Shown here piece by piece: positions 55,726 through 64,000 of a stretch of 64,000 nt of DNA. The position numbers were made by a program, and so were the translations under genes. This stretch comes from a virus, in the IMG/VR virus record IMGVR_UViG_3300005676_000020, positions 64,001-128,000 of that record; one strand, 5' to 3'. The notes under the pieces are model-generated. The model was not told the origin of the DNA. It was given only the letters and a program-made list of their open reading frames with translations, and did not search any database. Within the stretch, counting starts at the first letter, position 1. Every line of letters starts with the position of its first letter.

Positions 55726-57462
55726 ATGTATTTTTCTAACCACTTCCACAAGGCGTTTTTGAACCTGTCCGGTGCCATTAGGCAAACCGGTGCTAGTTCA
55801 GACCTGATCGCCGGTCAGTTGGGTTTTGCAGATGCAAAAACCTGGGACCTGGTCAGCGTAGCAAATGCCGACGTGGCAAATCACCCGTTAGTTGTTCTGT
55901 GTCAGGGTTCACTCTACCAGAACGATAAAATCGGAAAATTCCATGGTGGCTACATGGAATCTGTAAAATCAAGACCTATCAACGGTCGACTCATCACCAA
56001 GTTTACAAAATTTGTACCTCGCGATGAGAAGCCACATGCTGTTCAAATTGGCTACAATGGTAACGTAGATTGTGCCTGCCCTGAATTCGAGAAAGACAAA
56101 ACTTACTACCTGCGCGTAGAAGTTAAAGGTTCTCCTGTTCTGCGTACTTACACCAGGAACCTGTACAGGACCTTTGGTGTGTACACCGGCTGCCCTTCTG
56201 CCGATTGTCCTGATTTGACATGTTCACAGACAGCTGACCCCAAAAAGGTTTTCGAAGCTTTTGCAGCTCAGATTGTAGAAGACCCCGAAATCGCCCAGTT
56301 CTTAAAAGAAGTAAAAGTAGTAACACAAGGTACAACCTCTGTTACCGGCTCTACTGTAAGAACTTACAGAGGTTCTGTATGCGATGAAGGTAACATCCGG
56401 GCAATCGCCGAAGTGCTTGCTCACTTCCCTAAAGCAAAGCTTGTAGACCGCCAGGGTAATACCAGCACCTACGAGATCAAAACTGTAGACGATGCCGTTG
56501 CTCCAGATGACCTGGATGGTGGCGAACTCTCTTGTGGAGATCTGGTATGGAGCCTGTATAATATCTCCTACAAGGTTCAGAAAGTAATCTGTCTGACCTT
56601 GCCGCTGAAAAGCGACGGTTCTTCTAACCTGAGCGATGTTCAGACCGCTTTTGCCGACAACGACAAGATCGTAGAAGGTTCAATCGTTCTGGGCGATGGT
56701 AACTGTACTACTACAACTACCACTACCAGCTCAACCACAACCACTTCTACATCAACTACTACAACTACTACCGAAGCTGGAACCAGCTACGTAGGTTGTA
56801 CTGAAACAATCCAGGCTACTATCCTGTCTGACAACGAAGTCGACCTGGTTTGCGAAGGTGTTGATTCTGCAGTATTCTCTATGCCACAGTCCTACAACGG
56901 ATATATGTGGGAAGAGTGTCCTTGCTGCACTGTAGCTGACGATACTGACCAGTGTGTTGGTCTTCGTCTGGTTGCTAAGAAGAGCACCGAGATCACTGAC
57001 CAGTTCTCTAACTGCAGCTTCGACCCAATGGATCATGTTGAAACTGAGCCCATTACGATAATCGTAAGCTTCGTTAACATGTTCGGTGAAGCTTGTAGCT
57101 TCAAATCCCTGCCTGTTACCGAAATCCAGCAGCCGGTTATCCCAGAAGGTCTTGGAGAGTTCGCTCTGAGAGAGCTTCTGTTGAGCGCAAGCTACCAGCA
57201 GGATTGGTTCACTGGTGACCAAAGGATGAGAGAAGTGTTGAGCTTCCCTTACCTGGATGCCATCGATCGCAAGGCCAAATATGTGATATACACTATCACA
57301 CACACCATCCCCACAGGCATAGGACCTTCCGGTACTATCGGCCAGGATAGGTTCCTCTACAAAATCTTCGTAGAACAAGGCGTAAACGCCTCTACTTTCG
57401 AAGGTTGGATGAACGCCTACCTGACCTCTGCAGGAACTGGTGTAGCACTCGAAACACTGTAA
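55726..57462 (+). CDS. Abundant structural protein (auxiliary capsid-like) with a poly-Thr insert
   Basis: Own promoter motif and terminator, MCP-like codon bias, Thr/Ser tract at 56707-56772. Confidence 0.6.
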   Translation: MYFSNHFHKAFLNLSGAIRQTGASSDLIAGQLGFADAKTWDLVSVANADVANHPLVVLCQGSLYQNDKIGKFHGGYMESVKSRPINGRLITKFTKFVPRDEKPHAVQIGYNGNVDCACPEFEKDKTYYLRVEVKGSPVLRTYTRNLYRTFGVYTGCPSADCPDLTCSQTADPKKVFEAFAAQIVEDPEIAQFLKEVKVVTQGTTSVTGSTVRTYRGSVCDEGNIRAIAEVLAHFPKAKLVDRQGNTSTYEIKTVDDAVAPDDLDGGELSCGDLVWSLYNISYKVQKVICLTLPLKSDGSSNLSDVQTAFADNDKIVEGSIVLGDGNCTTTTTTTSSTTTTSTSTTTTTTEAGTSYVGCTETIQATILSDNEVDLVCEGVDSAVFSMPQSYNGYMWEECPCCTVADDTDQCVGLRLVAKKSTEITDQFSNCSFDPMDHVETEPITIIVSFVNMFGEACSFKSLPVTEIQQPVIPEGLGEFALRELLLSASYQQDWFTGDQRMREVLSFPYLDAIDRKAKYVIYTITHTIPTGIGPSGTIGQDRFLYKIFVEQGVNASTFEGWMNAYLTSAGTGVALETL

Positions 57463-57489
57463 TTTAGCATAGGCCCTTCTTCACAAAGT

Positions 57490-57520
57490 AAGCCGCCCCT
57501 TTCTAGGGGTGGCTTTTTTT
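57490..57520 (+). terminator. Intrinsic terminator
   Basis: AAGCCGCCCCT-TTCT-AGGGGTGGC followed by T7. Confidence 0.8.
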
Positions 57521-57569
57521 CTTGGCAGTGTCCTATTTTAGGTGTATATTATATTGAAAAACTCTGTCT

Positions 57570-58642
57570 ATGGCCCATGAACTTTCTCTGGAAGTACCTT
57601 CTATTTCCAACCCCAAAGCAATGAGAATCTACGATACTTCGCTTTGGGATGACACTTTGACGGTTACCAGCCGGAAGCTGGATATTATACCGCCAGGGTA
57701 TACTAACTCTACCACATTTACAGTGGTCAAGGGCTTTGACGAGCTGTACAACTCCTCAAACCTGGGAATAACCTCAACCACCGACCCATCAGCGATGTCA
57801 AACCTTCCTGATGGGATATATATTTTAAGGCTTACGGCCATTCATGGTTCAGATGAAGTATGGGTTGAATATAACCATCTCAGACAGGTTTGTCTTTTAA
57901 AAGATTATTACAAAGCTCTCTGTACTCTCAACTTCTATCCATGTGATACTATAGATGTGAATCTTGAGGCGAAACGGAAAGAGTTAATGACCATTAAGTC
58001 CTACATTGACGCGGCCAAAGCTAAGGTTGAATGGTGTAATGCTCCCGGTGAGGGGATAGCGCTACACAACTTTGCCAGGAAGATGATGGACCGGTTCTCT
58101 TTAGAAAAATGTAAAAACTGTTAATATGGGCGCAGCGGTATGTCCAAATTGTGGAACCAAGTATAGCTGTTCATGTAAACTAAGGACTGCATCAGACGGG
58201 ACAAAATGTTGCTCAAAATGCATCCAGACCTATGAACAGAGGAAGAAAGCAACCAAACCGGCGGTAAATCTAAATGTAATAAACGTTAAGACTAATGGTT
58301 AGTTGCTATGAAAGCCTTGATAACGGACTGGAATGTCAGCTAAAGAAGATAAAATGCTTGTTTGCTGACAGGATCTATTCTAATTTCAAGGAGATAAAAT
58401 ATGGTATACGTCCCTGTAAGGAGATGTATTCGGTTCTGTTCTTGTCAGATATGAAGGAGTTGTTGGAATATATCTACTCTATGGACCTTTCTAACTTCGA
58501 CAAAAATACTTACAAGAACTCAATACTGAACAACGACCAGCTTTTACAAATGGCGAAGGACGGGTGTATCCCTGAATTTGCCGTAGAGACACTGAAGGTA
58601 TGTAACATATCAACACTAATAGAAAAAATCAACTCACTGTGA
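57570..58642 (+). CDS. Three putative structural/assembly proteins (57570-58124, Cys-rich 58126-58302, 58295-58642)
   Basis: Coupled ORFs. 58126-58302 reads MGAAVCPNCGTKYSCSCKLRTASDGTKCCSKC... and is missed by the track. Confidence 0.55.
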
Positions 58643-59928
58643 TAAAAACAAACTCCTCTTCGACAAACCCTTGCGGCAACGGAACAACTTCCGAGTGTGT
58701 TACCTGGGAAGGACCGGATATAGAATGTCTCGGCATTGAAAAAGGCCAGACTATATCGGTTGCCATGGAAATTTTAGCCAATGAAATATGTGAGCTAAAA
58801 GAATCCCTGGACCTGAGCGACCTAGACCTGAAATGCTTGTTTGATATCTGTGCAGACTGCCCCGACCCGGTTAAAACCCTTAGGACAGTACTGGAGCTTA
58901 TCATCAACAAGATCTGTTCAATCCAGGAAACTATAGACGCGCTGAATTTGTCCACGTCCACCGGTTCTGACCCTATCCTGACACTGGCAAGTTGTTTCCA
59001 ATACACCTCAGCTGAAGGAGATCTGATAGTCGAACTACCACACACTACCTATACAAAGCGTATAGCAACTAAGGTCTGTGAACTGGTTCTTAACGTATCA
59101 GCCCTGCAGGATGATGTAGCTGACCTTCAAGATACTGTCAGCGACCTCCAGACCCAGATAAATGCGCTGGACCTGAACATACCTGATGTTAACTCTGACT
59201 GTCTGTTTGTAGGGACAAAGTCAATAGCCGACGCCTGGGAACTGCTTGATGCAGCTTTTTGTCAACTTCGTACAGGAGTAGGTACTATAACTGAGATAAA
59301 CCTGGCCATTAGCCGGCAGTGTTCTGAACTGAACGCTGAGTTTGGCGGTGAACCGGGATGGGTTGCCGTACCTGAAAATATTGCAGATTCTTTAAATAAC
59401 CTGTGGATTGCATTCTGCGCTGTAAAAGCTGTACAGGATACTTGTTGTGCAGTTACCTGCGATGATGTTCTCATCGGCTTCAACGCCACATACAGTGAAG
59501 ATAACACTGAAGTTATCCTCACATTTACTTCTGGCGCAGGAACCAGTCTGCCAAATGGATTTACTGATATCGGCTCTACTATCAATATCACCGACATTGA
59601 CGGTAACGTGGCCACATTTAACACCGGCGGCGCCGATGTGATAGAGCTTAACGCTGAGCTCGAAGTCAATGTTACAGGTTTGAACCTGAACGGAGACCTT
59701 GTCATAACAATCGACACTAATATAAGTAACGGAACACTTACTTGTAGCAAGTGTATCACTAAAACAATCAAAAAACCAAATTGTGCTTACTGTGAGATTT
59801 GCGCAGAAGGTGAAGATGGTTCATATGTGGTTATCACCTACCGTCTTGAAGGTAGCAGCATAGTCACAAACTATGAGCCTACAACTACCACCACTTCTAC
59901 GACAACAACCACAACTGCAGCACCATAA
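58639..59928 (+). CDS. Cys-rich fibre-like protein with a coiled coil and C-terminal poly-Thr
   Basis: SECVTWEGPDI N-terminal motif, heptads, PTTTTTSTTTTTTAAP end. Confidence 0.6.
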   Translation: MIKTNSSSTNPCGNGTTSECVTWEGPDIECLGIEKGQTISVAMEILANEICELKESLDLSDLDLKCLFDICADCPDPVKTLRTVLELIINKICSIQETIDALNLSTSTGSDPILTLASCFQYTSAEGDLIVELPHTTYTKRIATKVCELVLNVSALQDDVADLQDTVSDLQTQINALDLNIPDVNSDCLFVGTKSIADAWELLDAAFCQLRTGVGTITEINLAISRQCSELNAEFGGEPGWVAVPENIADSLNNLWIAFCAVKAVQDTCCAVTCDDVLIGFNATYSEDNTEVILTFTSGAGTSLPNGFTDIGSTINITDIDGNVATFNTGGADVIELNAELEVNVTGLNLNGDLVITIDTNISNGTLTCSKCITKTIKKPNCAYCEICAEGEDGSYVVITYRLEGSSIVTNYEPTTTTTSTTTTTTAAP

Positions 59929-59938
59929 AACAAATACA

Positions 59939-60445
59939 ATGGCAACACCTTTAGGAACAACAACACTTAAATCTGTATCTATCAAGGCGGGAGAATGCGT
60001 AGTTCTCCCTGCCGGAGCAGAAGTTATTGCCGTAACTACAAGCGGTAGTATAACAGCCACTTCTTCCTGTGGTACTCTCCCTACGCCCGGCAGCTTTAAA
60101 TGCTGGCGTTTTAAGTGGGGTGAGGGCACTTTTGAATCAGATGGTTTTGGCGACTGTTATTTTACAGGTATTCAAATAGGAGATACTCTATATGACGTTG
60201 TAGGGGCACCTGTAGCTGAAGCAAATACATGGGATAACGGAGCCGACTTCCTTGCCCAGGCTATACCTGTAGCAACCCCTCCGGGTTTAGTAGACAGTGT
60301 AACCAGCAGCGGTGGTGAGGCAGTACATCCTAAGTGTTTAATAATCAACATACCCGAAGAACTCGGTCAACCTATTCTGTTCTGGAGTAATCCTGGTTTT
60401 GAATATGGAGCCTATTATGGAGAAGAAGATCAGTGTTCATGTTAA
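59939..60445 (+). CDS. Putative structural protein
   Basis: Start MATPLGTTT; beta-rich. Confidence 0.55.
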   Translation: MATPLGTTTLKSVSIKAGECVVLPAGAEVIAVTTSGSITATSSCGTLPTPGSFKCWRFKWGEGTFESDGFGDCYFTGIQIGDTLYDVVGAPVAEANTWDNGADFLAQAIPVATPPGLVDSVTSSGGEAVHPKCLIINIPEELGQPILFWSNPGFEYGAYYGEEDQCSC

Positions 60446-60456
60446 AACTCTAATTA

Positions 60457-61044
60457 ATGTCTATCAAATTCTCATTTTTATGCTTTGACGGTTGTCCGTT
60501 CATACTTGATGCCAGTTGTGTAGACTATACTGGACCGGATTTGAACAACCTGTTCAATATGCCTACAGACAGTACGCTGGAGGAGATTATACAGAGTATT
60601 GACGCATTGACTTTTGTCCAAACACCGTTCACGGCAATAGGTACTAACTCCATTATAGCAATAGCCGGAGGTACCATAGGACATTCACCAGAATACCGCG
60701 TAAGAAGGAACCCTTCTGCAAATAATGCTATAACCTCTAGCACTGACGGTCTTAAAGTAACATCAAGTTCTATAGGTGACGGTAAGGTAAAAGTAAATGC
60801 AGGAGACACTAAAGACTATCTGGAAAATCAGATTGATGGCGACACTGACGGTATTGTAACAATAAATATCCAAAAGATAGGTGGAAAGCTGAGATTTGTG
60901 CCGGCGATAGACATAGATGCTCTGTTAGACGAAATAGAGAACAACCATCTAACAACTTTCTGCTCTATGATAAATGACTGTATCCCTAAAGGAATAAAAA
61001 CATTCACTAGTTCAACAACAACTACAACAACAATCCCTACATAA
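60457..61044 (+). CDS. Fibre-like protein with C-terminal poly-Thr
   Basis: DASCVDYTGPDL...GDGKVKV; paralog of the next gene. Confidence 0.6.
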   Translation: MSIKFSFLCFDGCPFILDASCVDYTGPDLNNLFNMPTDSTLEEIIQSIDALTFVQTPFTAIGTNSIIAIAGGTIGHSPEYRVRRNPSANNAITSSTDGLKVTSSSIGDGKVKVNAGDTKDYLENQIDGDTDGIVTINIQKIGGKLRFVPAIDIDALLDEIENNHLTTFCSMINDCIPKGIKTFTSSTTTTTTIPT

Positions 61045-62249
61045 TGAGTAACTGTTCTACTACTACAACGACAACTTGCTATCCCTGTAATCAATCAGGG
61101 ATTGACTGTGAATGCCCAAATGGCAGAGTTGATGCCGGTTGTGTGCAGTATACCGGTCCAGACCTTGAGAATTTCGACATAAACTCAGGGGATTACCTGG
61201 ATGATATACTGCAGAAACTGGATCAGCTGATATTTGCAGAAACAGCATTTACTGCTAATTCATCTGACTCTATTGTTGCTACTGCCGGTGGAACAAATGG
61301 TCACTCGCCAATTTACGAAGTTAGAATTGACCCTGATAGTGATAACTTAATAACAGTAAGTGCACTTGGTCTGATGGTTGATATAAACTCAGGGGGTGAT
61401 GGTAAGGTAAAAGTTGATGCTGGCGACCCTAAAGATTACCTGGAAGACCAGCTTGAGGGTGGGACAGATGGTATTATAAGCCTGTCCACGGTTACTATAG
61501 GTGGAGTAGTATATGTAGTACCTAGTCTGGATGTTGCAGCACTACTCGATGAAATTGAACAAAATCACCTGGTAAGACTTTGCCAGATTGTTCAAAACTG
61601 CATACCTGAAGAAGTAGAATGTATACCTTATATTCTAATGAATACTGGAGAAAGTCAGGTTGTTTATACATATACTAATTGTGAAGGAGTAGAAGTTCCA
61701 GGAAACACCCTTGAAGCGGGAGATTCTACCAACGTGTTCTGTGCTCTGGAAGGTTCTGTCCTGGTTACTGACAACAGTACAACAGAGCTGGTGGTAGTTG
61801 CTGACTATGATTGTAATACTACAACGACCACTACAACTACGACAACTACGACGTCTACAACTACTACAACCACTTCAGGACTTGTTTATTTCAACTTGCA
61901 TAATGAGGGAGTTGCTGTAATAGACACCTATTTACAAGACTCTAACTCCTTGATATACTATGTAATAGACAATACTACAGGCTCTGGTCAGGAATCTAAT
62001 TACTCGTTTAACCCTGTTGGTTCCGATGTAAATATTATCCTACAGAACTTTACAGCTCGTCCAGAACTGGTTATTGGCGTGGTTATCTACCTCAACGGAG
62101 GTATTATATTTGACTCTATAGAAAGTATTGGAGATTTCCTGGAAGAGGAAATTCTAATATCAGCCGGAGATGTAATAGATGTTTACTTATATCCAACCTC
62201 TGGAGGAACAACTAGTTCATCGACCACTACAACTACGACAACATCATAA
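61044..62249 (+). CDS. Fibre-like protein with three poly-Thr tracts
   Basis: DAGCVQYTGPDL...GDGKVKV; Thr tracts at the N-terminus, middle and C-terminus. Confidence 0.6.
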   Translation: MSNCSTTTTTTCYPCNQSGIDCECPNGRVDAGCVQYTGPDLENFDINSGDYLDDILQKLDQLIFAETAFTANSSDSIVATAGGTNGHSPIYEVRIDPDSDNLITVSALGLMVDINSGGDGKVKVDAGDPKDYLEDQLEGGTDGIISLSTVTIGGVVYVVPSLDVAALLDEIEQNHLVRLCQIVQNCIPEEVECIPYILMNTGESQVVYTYTNCEGVEVPGNTLEAGDSTNVFCALEGSVLVTDNSTTELVVVADYDCNTTTTTTTTTTTTSTTTTTTSGLVYFNLHNEGVAVIDTYLQDSNSLIYYVIDNTTGSGQESNYSFNPVGSDVNIILQNFTARPELVIGVVIYLNGGIIFDSIESIGDFLEEEILISAGDVIDVYLYPTSGGTTSSSTTTTTTTS

Positions 62250-62251
62250 TT

Positions 62252-62983
62252 ATGAAAGTACTAGCTATAACAGCGACTTGTGGGAGACACACCTGTCTTG
62301 AAAGATCAGTTAGATTCTTTCTGGACCAGGATTATAGTGACTGTGTTCAGCTGATATACCAGAATTCTAAAGTAGAGCAACGTCTGAACTCTAATCTTGG
62401 CAAGAATATTATTCTGGTAAACCAGGCTCATAGAACCCAGGACAGGCGTGATTATACCTGTCTTGGTGAGATATACAATGATATCATTAAGTTTATACCG
62501 GCTGACGTAGAGGTAGTTACCTTCTGGGATGATGATGACCTTTTTCTACCAAATCATATACGAGAAGGGGTAGAAGGACTCGTCCGGGGAGGAAAGACAG
62601 CTTATAAGCCAATGAAGTCCTTTTATAAAGAAAAGGGAAGAGTTGCCTTAGTCACCAATGTTTTGGAACCGTCTATGTTCATAAAAGTAGACCATATTAA
62701 AAAGTACGGGTTTAGTAACACTACTTCTGACCAACATATGAGTTGGGTACGGCCGTTGATAGAGACTAATGATATATTCGTTGATACTGAAGGAGTACCT
62801 ACTTACGTATGCGACTGGTCTCAAGAAATATCTACATTTAAGACTTCCGGAGACCCTAATAACAAGAACAATTTTGTAAACTATCATAAAAGCTCTGCTG
62901 ACCACGGCGACGGTATAATCACCCCGGCACCAAAGTCAGTAGCTGAAAAATATTATTCACAATTCAATAGTTATGCACGTTGA
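62252..62983 (+). CDS. GT-A fold (GT2-like) glycosyltransferase
   Basis: ITATCGR...FLDQDY...LGEIYN...TFWDDDD. Confidence 0.8.
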   Translation: MKVLAITATCGRHTCLERSVRFFLDQDYSDCVQLIYQNSKVEQRLNSNLGKNIILVNQAHRTQDRRDYTCLGEIYNDIIKFIPADVEVVTFWDDDDLFLPNHIREGVEGLVRGGKTAYKPMKSFYKEKGRVALVTNVLEPSMFIKVDHIKKYGFSNTTSDQHMSWVRPLIETNDIFVDTEGVPTYVCDWSQEISTFKTSGDPNNKNNFVNYHKSSADHGDGIITPAPKSVAEKYYSQFNSYAR

Positions 62984-63494
62984 AGTACAGCAGTTTATAC
63001 AGGAAGTTAAGGCCAAACACAATGATTTCTTTACAGGAAAGAAGGTTCTCGAAGTTGGTTCTCTTGACATAAATGGTAGTATAAGACCTCTTTTCTTTAA
63101 GTGTGATTACTTGGGAATAGACCTTGGCCCAGGAAAAGGAGTAGATATGGTTAAGCCAATACATGAGCTTGACCATTTTGATACATATGATGTAGTAGTT
63201 TCTACAGAGATGCTGGAGCACGACCAGTTTTGGAAAGATTCTTTGAAAAGAATGTATGACGTTTTAAAACCTTCTGGGTTACTAATACTTACCTGTGCCG
63301 GACCGGCTAGGCATGAACATGGCACAACCAGGACTACTCCCGGGGATGCCCCGTTTACCAATGACTATTATAGAAATATAACCTTATCTGATTTCATGTC
63401 TATCCTGCCTGAAAATCTCTTTTCAGAATATAAACTTGAGTACCGGCGGGCAGATACAGACTTAGTTTTTTACGGAATAAAAACCAAACCATGA
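62973..63494 (+). CDS. Class I SAM-dependent methyltransferase
   Basis: KVLEVGSLDING, GIDL, DVVVSTEMLEH and LKPSG. Confidence 0.85.
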   Translation: MHVEVQQFIQEVKAKHNDFFTGKKVLEVGSLDINGSIRPLFFKCDYLGIDLGPGKGVDMVKPIHELDHFDTYDVVVSTEMLEHDQFWKDSLKRMYDVLKPSGLLILTCAGPARHEHGTTRTTPGDAPFTNDYYRNITLSDFMSILPENLFSEYKLEYRRADTDLVFYGIKTKP

Positions 63495-64000
63495 TACCAA
63501 GAAACTTAATATTTCTAAGCGCTCATTCGCACGATGAGTGTTTTATCTGGCAATGCCAGGTGTTCATTGTAAATTTCAGAGATAAAGGGGTACCGATGGA
63601 CCAGATACATATTGTCGTATGGTACCCAAAGACCGGTCTGAACCAGAAATGGGAGCTATTGAGGAAGAAGTATCCCAGGGTAAAGTTCTTCTTTTACAAA
63701 GACGAAGATGTCGATTTAAAGCTTTATATTCCTCAATTGAGACCTAATGTTCTCAAGAGGTATATTGCCGACAATCCTAGTGATAACGTGTTCTTTTATC
63801 ACGACGCCGACATTATTTTCAACTTTTTACCAAACTTCACCGAGCTGGTAAAAGGACCGGTTTGCTGGCAAAGTGATACCTCTGGGTATCTGGACTATAA
63901 CTATCTAAGATCTAAGGAAATAGAAGGTAAAATACCTGAACATGAAGCCATAGGTAAATTAGCAGAAATAGGAAAAGTATCAGTAGATACAATAATGAGC
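63491..64000 (+). CDS. HPAT/SRGT1-like peptide O-glycosyltransferase (partial, runs off the window)
   Basis: Manual translation: ...CFIWQCQVFIVNF...LYIPQLRPNVLKRYI...FFYHDADIIF (DxD). Confidence 0.55.
   Translation, partial: MIPRNLIFLSAHSHDECFIWQCQVFIVNFRDKGVPMDQIHIVVWYPKTGLNQKWELLRKKYPRVKFFFYKDEDVDLKLYIPQLRPNVLKRYIADNPSDNVFFYHDADIIFNFLPNFTELVKGPVCWQSDTSGYLDYNYLRSKEIEGKIPEHEAIGKLAEIGKVSVDTIMS

Follow-up and report, generated by a model that had tools for sequence, protein, structure and literature searches.

Poly-threonine tracts of virion proteins and a GT8-like enzyme family in crAss-like and other phages: a candidate system of virion O-glycosylation

The 64,000-nucleotide stretch analyzed here (hereafter, the window) covers bases 64001-128000 of the IMG/VR virus record IMGVR_UViG_3300005676_000020, a genome of 142,129 bp rated complete by CheckV. 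Near its 3' end, four adjacent genes for predicted virion proteins encode six tracts of threonine and serine, and they are directly followed on the same strand by the genes of a GT2-type glycosyltransferase (GT), a methyltransferase, and a protein of 320 amino acids (aa) that is predicted to be a glycosyltransferase of the GT8/GT24-like GT-A fold (hereafter, the GT8-like enzyme). Such tracts and relatives of the GT8-like enzyme occur together both in other crAss-like phages and in cultured phages of several bacterial genera. As judged from these sequence comparisons, the phage probably encodes enzymes that act in the cytoplasm and O-glycosylate poly-Thr tags on its own virion proteins.

Threonine tracts and their co-occurrence with the GT8-like enzyme

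A preliminary description of this region had reported six Thr/Ser tracts in four plus-strand open reading frames (ORFs), and all of them were recovered (Table 1). In a six-frame scan of the whole genome for runs of at least six Ser or Thr residues in ORFs of at least 80 aa, these were the only Thr-rich runs; the other four runs are Ser-rich and fall in antisense frames. The tracts are confined to 5.5 kb of the 142 kb, in four adjacent genes directly upstream of the enzymes. They are encoded by a mixture of ACT, ACA, ACC, and ACG codons with occasional Ser codons (TCN or AGY), and Tandem Repeats Finder detected in them a weak, imperfect periodicity (64-88% matches, scores 32-73). In the relative L004, whose homologue of the 578-aa protein is 82% identical, tracts occupy the same positions, including the tail of the 429-aa protein, and differ in length, codons, and interspersed residues. 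Since codons and lengths vary between the two phages while positions and threonine are kept, it follows that Thr composition is conserved at the protein level, and selection acts on this composition, as the preliminary description had argued from the mixed codons.

Other origins of the tracts were considered. A microsatellite origin was rejected because the codons are mixed, the Tandem Repeats Finder scores are low, and the codons differ among relatives while Thr stays. A frameshift artefact as the source of the terminal tails was rejected as well, since the corresponding genes of L004 are likewise separate and have these tails too, and the junction between the 195- and 401-aa genes is an ordinary ATGA overlap. 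Chance was rejected, as the 142 kb hold no other Thr run.

Table 1. Tracts, tract-bearing genes, and enzyme genes of the cluster. Positions refer to the window unless the genome is named; alternative locus coordinates are in parentheses.
Feature	Position	Strand	Remarks
Predicted homologue of crAss auxiliary (outer-layer) capsid protein, 578 aa	55726-57462	+	AlphaFold2 (AF2) core, Foldseek, VIA
Tract 1, 22 residues	56707-56772	+	TTTTTTTSSTTTTSTSTTTTTT; aa 328-349 of the 578-aa ORF, inside the capsid-protein insert
Cys-rich, coiled-coil, fibre-like protein, 429 aa	58639-59928	+	Position, modularity, Cys-rich domain
Tract 2, 12 residues	59881-59916	+	aa 415-426 of the 429-aa ORF; C-terminal tail, 3 residues before the end
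195-aa protein	60457-61044	+	Paralogue of the N-terminal domain of the next gene's product
Tract 3, 9 residues	61006-61032	+	aa 184-192 of the 195-aa ORF; C-terminal tail
Fibre-like protein, 401 aa	61044-62249	+	N-terminal domain, Cys-rich domain, poly-Thr linker, C-terminal domain, poly-Thr tail
Tract 4, 7 residues	61056-61076	+	aa 5-11 of the 401-aa ORF; N-terminal
Tract 5, 20 residues	61818-61877	+	aa 259-278 of the 401-aa ORF; interdomain linker
Tract 6, 13 residues	62208-62246	+	aa 389-401 of the 401-aa ORF; C-terminal tail
GT2 (inverting GT-A) with DDDD motif, 243 aa	62252-62983	+	Family profile against PF00535 and SpsA
Class I S-adenosylmethionine (SAM) methyltransferase, 173 aa	62973-63494	+	phrog_32762, 1.6e-47; Methyltransf_23 (PF13489), 8.7e-8
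Predicted GT-A fold glycosyltransferase (GT8-like enzyme), 320 aa	63491-64000	+	First 170 codons; gene ends at genome position 128453, 453 nt beyond the window
Collagen-repeat (GYS)n tail fibre, 1030 aa	genome 128446-131538 (L003:1447-4539)		Between the GT8-like gene and the eight-domain enzyme
BNR-like protein, 389 aa	genome 131538-132707 (L003:4539-5708)		Thr-rich (11.8%); weak BNR/sialidase-like repeats
Eight-domain enzyme, 1931 aa	genome 132763-138558 (L003:5764-11559)		About 4.8 kb past the window end
GT2, 352 aa			Past the window, same cluster

Co-occurrence of tracts and glycosyltransferases across phages, which had been put forward as a check of the glycosylation hypothesis, was observed in loci chosen by the enzyme, in records chosen by the capsid protein, and in cultured phages. 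A profile of the 320-aa family alone retrieved 80 viral loci (32-58% identity). Within 2 kb of the enzyme gene and on its strand these loci contain 196 tracts (~0.65 per kb), as opposed to 26 tracts beyond 5 kb (~0.045 per kb); the four nearest 1-kb bins hold 57, 58, 54, and 27 runs, and the bins beyond 5 kb hold 0-5 each. After dereplication at 80% identity, a tract-bearing ORF is found at most 2.5 kb away in 39 of 49 enzyme clusters. Because the tract-bearing ORFs near the enzyme belong to at least 22 unrelated sequence families, the link of the enzyme is with the tag and not with any particular neighbour.

For the second sample, 80 loci were selected solely by their major capsid protein, and the 20 longest records among them were searched whole. 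The pattern (ACN)7 is present in both of the records with the enzyme and in none of the 18 without it. Together with five enzyme-chosen records and the genome studied here, they form a set of 26 crAss-like records, where (ACN)7 is found in all eight genomes with a GT8-like gene (1-13 hits each, always on the strand of the enzyme) and in none of the 18 others; with the records treated as independent, Fisher's exact test gives 1/C(26,8) = 6e-7. Four of the 18 enzyme-negative records are at least 98% complete, with genomes of 120 kb. Among homologous proteins, tracts are gained only where the GT is present, as seen for the insert of the capsid protein and for the linker of the 429-aa family (see below).

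In about 30 loci, small proteins of 60-165 aa are encoded directly 3' of the GT8-like gene (e.g., L031:11017-11232, L046:11025-11294, and L077:11032-11232). They have a conserved head of ~45 residues (..KAYVRYDGSGRVV.GSL.LR..KPKVG.W.E....ECC) that passes at once into poly-Thr, often with nothing else, and may represent minimal tagged decoration proteins.

The pairing also extends to cultured phages of diverse kinds, in which it takes its simplest form. In Enterococcus phage phiFL1A, the 332-aa gp45 and the major tail protein end in poly-Thr (...TTTTTKPTTTTTKPTTTTTTTQG and ...TTTTTSTTTTTTSSTTTTTTTQASSK, respectively), and the GT8-like enzyme is encoded by the next gene after the major tail protein. 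The annotation of gp45 is conserved hypothetical only; its position after the scaffold gene suggests that it is the capsid protein. Similarly, the major capsid and major tail proteins of Lactobacillus phage iLp84 both end in T7SK, and the same combination of tags and enzyme is seen in Clostridium phage phiCTP1, Staphylococcus phage vB_SpsS-DH5, Lactobacillus phage Bacchae, Chryseobacterium phage MA9V-3, and Enterococcus phage nattely, in the last case with the major tail protein (phrog_88). As a rule, capsid and tail-tube proteins of enzyme-bearing cultured phages end in poly-Thr. Five of these genomes lack both PF00535 (GT2) and PF00534 (GT1) domains, leaving the GT8-like enzyme as the only one of the three glycosyltransferase types found in them. 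Since neither domain accompanies it there, the priming step of the proposed modification is attributed to the GT8-like enzyme.

Phage glycosyltransferases are classically DNA-modifying (PMC12619734), and the enzymes considered here could be supposed to hypermodify phage DNA, by T4-like glucosylation or by arabinosylation of hydroxymethyl bases, with no relation to virion proteins. In agreement with this, the Bacchae enzyme is encoded near the recA and sigma-factor genes. However, the two genes directly upstream of it are full of Thr runs, the enzyme is mostly located inside the head or tail module beside tagged proteins, and modification of DNA predicts no tie to Thr tracts. We regard this explanation as very improbable.

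The GT8-like enzyme

The 320-aa protein matches phrog_4417, a family of "unknown function" (1.4e-51), and is not a member of the curated GT8 or GT24 families by sequence. Its AF2 model, built with 38 homologues, consists of a single Rossmann-like GT-A domain with a predicted local distance difference test score (pLDDT) of 95.8. A Foldseek search with this model gave 243 matches at E <=1e-3, the best being to the catalytic domain of UGGT, WbbM, glycogenin, XXYLT1, LARGE1, the Skp1 galactosyltransferase AgtA, and COLGALT1 (E of 1e-6 to 1e-4, TM-scores of 0.4-0.5, sequence identity of 8-13%). Examination of 39 homologues revealed three invariant residues, H104, D105, and D107 (FYHD[SA]DI), which correspond to the DxD site that binds metal and nucleotide sugar in such enzymes. 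The modelled fold and this site identify the protein as a glycosyltransferase of GT8/GT24-like GT-A fold. It shares the fold and the DxD motif with the GT8/GT24-type enzymes (glycogenin, UGGT, XXYLT1, LARGE1, and the Skp1 alpha-galactosyltransferase), several of which act on proteins or protein-bound glycans, and differs from them in having no sequence match to any Pfam family (E <=0.01) or PDB chain (E <=1). The gene had initially been called peptide-O-glycosyltransferase-like; the glycosyltransferase half of this name agrees with the fold, whereas action on peptides is not given by the fold.

The phrog_4417 family comprises at least 872 clusters at 50% identity and is seen in crAss-like phages and in phages of Enterococcus, Lactobacillus, Staphylococcus, and Clostridium. 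A likeness to the plant peptidyl O-glycosyltransferase families GT95 and GT96 (HPAT, SGT1) was looked for: there is no Pfam match, no solved structure of either family came up in the fold search, and no named plant protein is among the longer homologues or the best 150 of the 872 representatives of phrog_4417. In three longer homologues (P0132, P0135, and P0136) the GT8-like domain is fused to radical SAM and SPASM domains. Further homologues are present in genome records of Sphingobacterium and Chitinophaga (P0131 and P0137).

Proteins bearing the tracts

The record belongs to a crAss-like phage: the 547-aa protein encoded at 52101-53744 matches the Pfam family Crass_capsid (3e-17), and a 232-aa protein shows a weak match to the SU10 adaptor and crAss ring proteins. 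Beginning at 47.9 kb, all large ORFs in the remainder of the record are on the plus strand and constitute a head, fibre, and tail module. The crAss-type capsid proteins, the sole basis for a host assignment, point to a host of Bacteroidota type. A megablast search of cultured phages with 12 kb of the sequence gave no match, so that none of them is close in DNA sequence, and the best cultured relative of the capsid protein, with 27% identity, is from a Leptolyngbya phage. Searching with tblastn for the 578-aa protein returned no match; PDB sequence searches with the 320-, 243-, and 578-aa proteins yielded nothing usable, and the ESM Atlas gave unnamed viral clusters only (scores <=0.81).

All four tract-bearing proteins had been described as structural. 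For the 578-aa protein this is supported by its fold. The core of its AF2 model (pLDDT 75-90) matches 7qof_a, chain a of the phicrAss001 capsid, with a Foldseek E value of 4e-7 and a VIA Z of 16.5 (root-mean-square deviation 5.8, 303 of 333 residues aligned), far above other chains, and has the two-domain PH and FliD-like fold of the crAss auxiliary capsid protein. We equate 7qof_a with gp36 because the length of the chain, 333, equals the length of gp36 in PMC10172136; gp36 of phicrAss001 is a 333-residue auxiliary protein of the outer capsid layer, present in one copy per major capsid protein (PMC10172136). In terms of this model, the 578-aa protein is the auxiliary (outer-layer) capsid protein of a crAss-like phage, and by homology it would be located on the outer surface, in one copy per major capsid protein. 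As in phicrAss001, its gene is in a crAss-type head module near that of the Crass_capsid protein. The differences from gp36 are a low identity (~10%) and a length of 578 aa, with a Thr-tract insert of ~210 aa that interrupts the sheath-/flagellin-like region.

The 578-aa family was found in 54 of the 80 loci retrieved via the capsid protein. Its tract-free members are 382-394 aa long and align to aa 2-209 and 423-578 of the protein studied here, so that the insert (aa ~210-422), which holds tract 1, is missing from relatives without the GT. Since the core has the gp36 fold, tract 1 would be part of an insert in an abundant protein of the outer shell.

The other three tract-bearing proteins, of 429, 195, and 401 aa, are classified as fibre-like by their position, modularity, and Cys-rich domains, and for them the structural role claimed previously is backed by position and not by fold; Pfam detected nothing in these proteins, in their sub-domains, or in the 168-aa ORF described below. 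The first ~377 residues of the 429-aa protein (aa 7-377) are common to GT-negative homologues of 485-621 aa, and the distal domains differ. Within this family a 33-residue Thr run is situated at the same junction in an independent lineage (L107), and there is none in the enzyme-less L092. The 195- and 401-aa proteins are 52% identical across their 165-residue N-terminal domain. In L004, the homologue of the 195-aa protein has 334 aa, with a (T7-8 AAP)n linker of ~100 residues followed by a Cys-rich C-terminal domain, and the tail of the 195-aa protein looks like this linker minus its distal domain.

A 190-aa ORF starting at 59873 overlaps the Thr tail of the 429-aa gene in another frame. Comparison with L004 suggests that translation probably begins at the ATG at 59939 (window positions 59939-60445, 168 aa). 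The resulting protein is small, conserved, Cys-containing, and tract-free.

These comparisons bear on an explanation in which the Thr runs are plain flexible, protease-resistant linkers or spacers, the GTs modify the host envelope or a polysaccharide, and both merely ride in a fast-evolving fibre module. The internal tracts are indeed interdomain or insert linkers, with tract 5 parting two domains of the 401-aa protein, and the tract of the 195-aa protein corresponds to a linker whose distal domain is gone; the original assertion that a linker role makes no sense for the terminal tails is, to this extent, not sustained. Moreover, PHROGs labels such GT2 domains as O-antigen conversion or moron genes, and the enzymes occupy the most variable part of the genome. 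On the other hand, plain linkers give no account of the C-terminal poly-Thr tails on major capsid and tail proteins of unrelated Firmicutes phages, which have no distal domain and are encoded adjacent to the GT with no GT2 or GT1 found. The split of 8/8 versus 0/18 among phages with the same capsid module would also be left unexplained. As to a target on the host surface, no membrane segments are predicted in the enzymes of the block, and there are no flippase or polymerase genes. Plain linkers combined with unrelated enzymes therefore appear improbable, and glycosylation of the tags remains our preferred reading.

The enzyme cluster, a possible pathway, and known glycosylation systems

The genes that follow the tagged proteins had been described as those of a GT2-like transferase and a methyltransferase, and both assignments were confirmed by profile matches (Table 1). 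The 243-aa protein alone scores 15.7 bits against PF00535, under the cut-off of 23.3 bits, and 13 of the 15 members of its family match PF00535 (best E value 9e-13). The family profile also matches SpsA of B. subtilis (1h7l, E value 1e-9), and residues D93-D96 are conserved in the family. A GT2 of this type accompanies the GT8-like gene in 25 of the 80 enzyme loci and is fused to it in P0157. The 173-aa methyltransferase is missing from the closest relative, L004.

The cluster extends for another 14 kb past the edge of the window. Its largest product, the 1931-aa protein, has the domain order GT2, Methyltransf_24, GT2, GT2, Methyltransf_24, GT17, GT17, GT2. In total, the block encodes 8 glycosyltransferase and 3 methyltransferase domains, and all PF00535 (GT2) domains of the genome fall within it. 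In the closest relative (G026), the eight-domain enzyme is replaced by a protein with GT2 and Methyltransf_24 domains and a protein with GT32-like and methyltransferase domains; the downstream elaboration enzymes are not conserved between relatives. Natural fusions of GT2 with GT8-like, of Methyltransf_24 with GT8-like, and of GT8-like with GT2 domains would tie the neighbouring enzyme types to one pathway. The 389-aa BNR-like protein may form the tip of a fibre or trim glycans. The system had been portrayed as self-contained, which did not hold: the genome has no NTP-transferase or NAD-epimerase genes, and the sugar donors must therefore come from the host.

The position of the 1030-aa collagen-like fibre, between the GT8-like gene and the eight-domain enzyme, raises another candidate acceptor. 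In this explanation, the (GYS)n fibre is the main substrate of the large enzyme set, especially of the 1931-aa protein, and no more than a simple sugar is added to the Thr tracts. The repeat unit, GYS in this phage, is GYT in its closest relative (L004:18941-21727), 20 of the 80 enzyme loci contain (GTS)n or (GYT)n arrays, and COLGALT1 is among the fold matches of the GT8-like enzyme. A glycosylated collagen-like protein, BclA, is known from Bacillus spores. However, such arrays are found in only a quarter of the enzyme loci, compared with Thr tracts in 39 of 49 clusters, and the small Firmicutes phages have Thr tails beside the enzyme (collagen repeats were not searched for there). The fibre is rather unlikely to be the main acceptor overall but may be one for the eight-domain enzyme; its glycosylation is compatible with that of the tags, the two not being exclusive. 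In other enzyme loci (L070, L085, and L058), (GTS)n arrays reach ~480 triplets.

Glycosylation of the tags may proceed as follows. The acceptors would be the Thr runs of the four proteins, that is, the insert of the auxiliary capsid protein and the linkers and tails of the three fibre-like proteins. Late in infection, the soluble GT8-like enzyme would place the first sugar, taken from a host nucleotide sugar, on Thr hydroxyls; it is assigned the role of the primer because no other component accompanies the tags in every case. Domain content and gene fusions suggest that the 243-aa GT2, the 173-aa methyltransferase, the 1931-aa protein, and the 352-aa GT2 elaborate the product, with GT2, GT17, and methyltransferase domains extending and O-methylating the chain at the expense of host nucleotide sugars and SAM. 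The order of priming, extension, and methyl capping is plausible. Assembly of the tagged proteins would then produce a virion with a dense, partly methylated glycan coat on its head and fibres. With its Ser or Thr in each triplet, the collagen-like fibre could also serve as an acceptor. The coat could act as a glycan shield; it might also improve solubility, protect against proteases, or either mediate or prevent adhesion.

Several observations weigh against this pathway. For 10 of the 49 enzyme clusters, the nearest 2.5 kb are free of tracts. In IMGVR_UViG_3300033069_001366 (G024/L012), a GT2 and GT8-like pair has no Thr run within 10 kb, and the single (ACN)7 hit is 59 kb from the enzyme. 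The co-occurrence counts also ignore shared ancestry of the records. The insert of the 578-aa protein is modelled at pLDDT <50, and hence its surface exposure is deduced rather than seen in the model; none of the 429-, 195-, and 401-aa proteins matched a solved or named virion protein in Pfam, PHROGs, or the ESM Atlas. Since the GT17 tandem of the 1931-aa protein has no relatives in the viral contig collection, it is by position that this enzyme is linked to the tags. Finally, GT8-like folds also serve non-protein acceptors, such as lipopolysaccharide and glycogen, and poly-Thr linkers are common in secreted bacterial proteins that have no dedicated enzyme.

A more far-reaching proposition, which in our opinion has an even chance of being correct, is that phrog_4417 is a dedicated protein-Thr O-glycosyltransferase and poly-Thr a portable glyco-tag that sugar-coats any virion protein gaining it. 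In the phage considered here, the primed tags, several hundred of them on the outer capsid layer and others on the fibres, would be built up by the eight-domain assembly-line enzyme into a complex methylated glycan, forming a true glycocalyx on a bacterial virus.

The nearest described system is the virion glycosylation of mycobacteriophages. According to the accounts of Freeman et al. (2023) in PMC12619734 and PMC12363180, phages Che8, Corndog, and Myrna glycosylate the C-termini of capsid and tail-tube proteins with their own GTs. The present system would work like it and is not a member of it. As far as those accounts go, phage-encoded GTs modify the phage's own structural proteins in the cytoplasm, and a similar transfer is presumed here; terminal tags on virion proteins are present in this phage and in the Firmicutes phages with the enzyme. 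As in the mycobacteriophage type, GTs are encoded together with virion proteins that bear a putative acceptor, and here the enzyme genes and the tagged capsid and fibre genes form one co-directional block. In contrast, a search of the Che8 genome with the GT8-like family profile gave no hit at E <=1, and poly-Thr is missing from the Che8 capsid and tail-tube proteins, whose C-termini read ...KTGS and ...SDGS. The hosts differ too, being of Bacteroidota type (for crAss-like phages) and Firmicutes as opposed to Actinobacteria; the tag is also internal here, in the outer capsid protein and fibres; and the enzyme set, with the domain complement given above, is far larger.

A parallel to the 1931- and 173-aa proteins is provided by enzymes of chlorovirus PBCV-1. 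A064R has two glycosyltransferase domains and one methyltransferase domain and is counted among the few known enzymes that combine three transferase domains, and A061L is a stand-alone methyltransferase (PMC9614988). There, a soluble multi-domain enzyme builds and methyl-caps a glycan of the virus's own capsid, and a small methyltransferase completes it. The PBCV-1 glycans differ in being N-linked and attached to the capsid protein of a eukaryotic virus, and A064R has three domains compared with eight here.

Among bacteria, glycosylation of serine-rich repeat adhesins appears to be the nearest analogue for dense O-glycosylation of low-complexity sequence. These adhesins of Gram-positive bacteria are glycosylated intracellularly, before export (PMC7948813), and Ser/Thr-rich disordered regions are glycosylated in streptococcal membrane proteins (PMC12041528). 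In both cases, long low-complexity Ser/Thr regions are dense O-glycan acceptors of dedicated transferases. The proteins modified there are on the bacterial surface, whereas here they are parts of the virion and the enzyme has a GT-A fold. Priming of serine-rich adhesins is carried out by the GT-B enzymes GtfA/B, and other such proteins are modified outside the membrane.

To our knowledge, mycobacteriophages are so far the only phages in which glycosylation of the virion by phage enzymes has been shown, and our literature searches found no paper connecting poly-Thr tags or phrog_4417 with phage glycosylation. What is new here is most likely a form of virion glycosylation that relies on another enzyme family and on a different, portable tag as acceptor, in other hosts. 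In the crAss-like phage it would be elaborated by an exceptionally large set of enzymes and displayed on the outer capsid protein.

If this is true, a sugar coat would be a common feature of phage particles, both among crAss-like phages of Bacteroidota and among those infecting Enterococcus, Staphylococcus, Lactobacillus, and Clostridium, which include candidates for therapy and phages relevant to dairy fermentation. Glycosylation of mycobacteriophage virions lowers antibody recognition, and a coat of the proposed kind would bear on the immune clearance of therapeutic phages, as well as on the stability of particles and their stickiness in mucus and sludge. It would also bear on the interpretation of cryo-electron microscopy density and on the annotation of hundreds of "hypothetical" genes. 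The 1931-aa protein, with its eight transferase domains, would be an unusually large single-chain enzyme of glycan assembly compared with the three-domain A064R (PMC9614988). The pairing of tag and enzyme is directly testable in cultured phages, and the poly-Thr tag would offer a simple handle for the glyco-engineering of phage particles.

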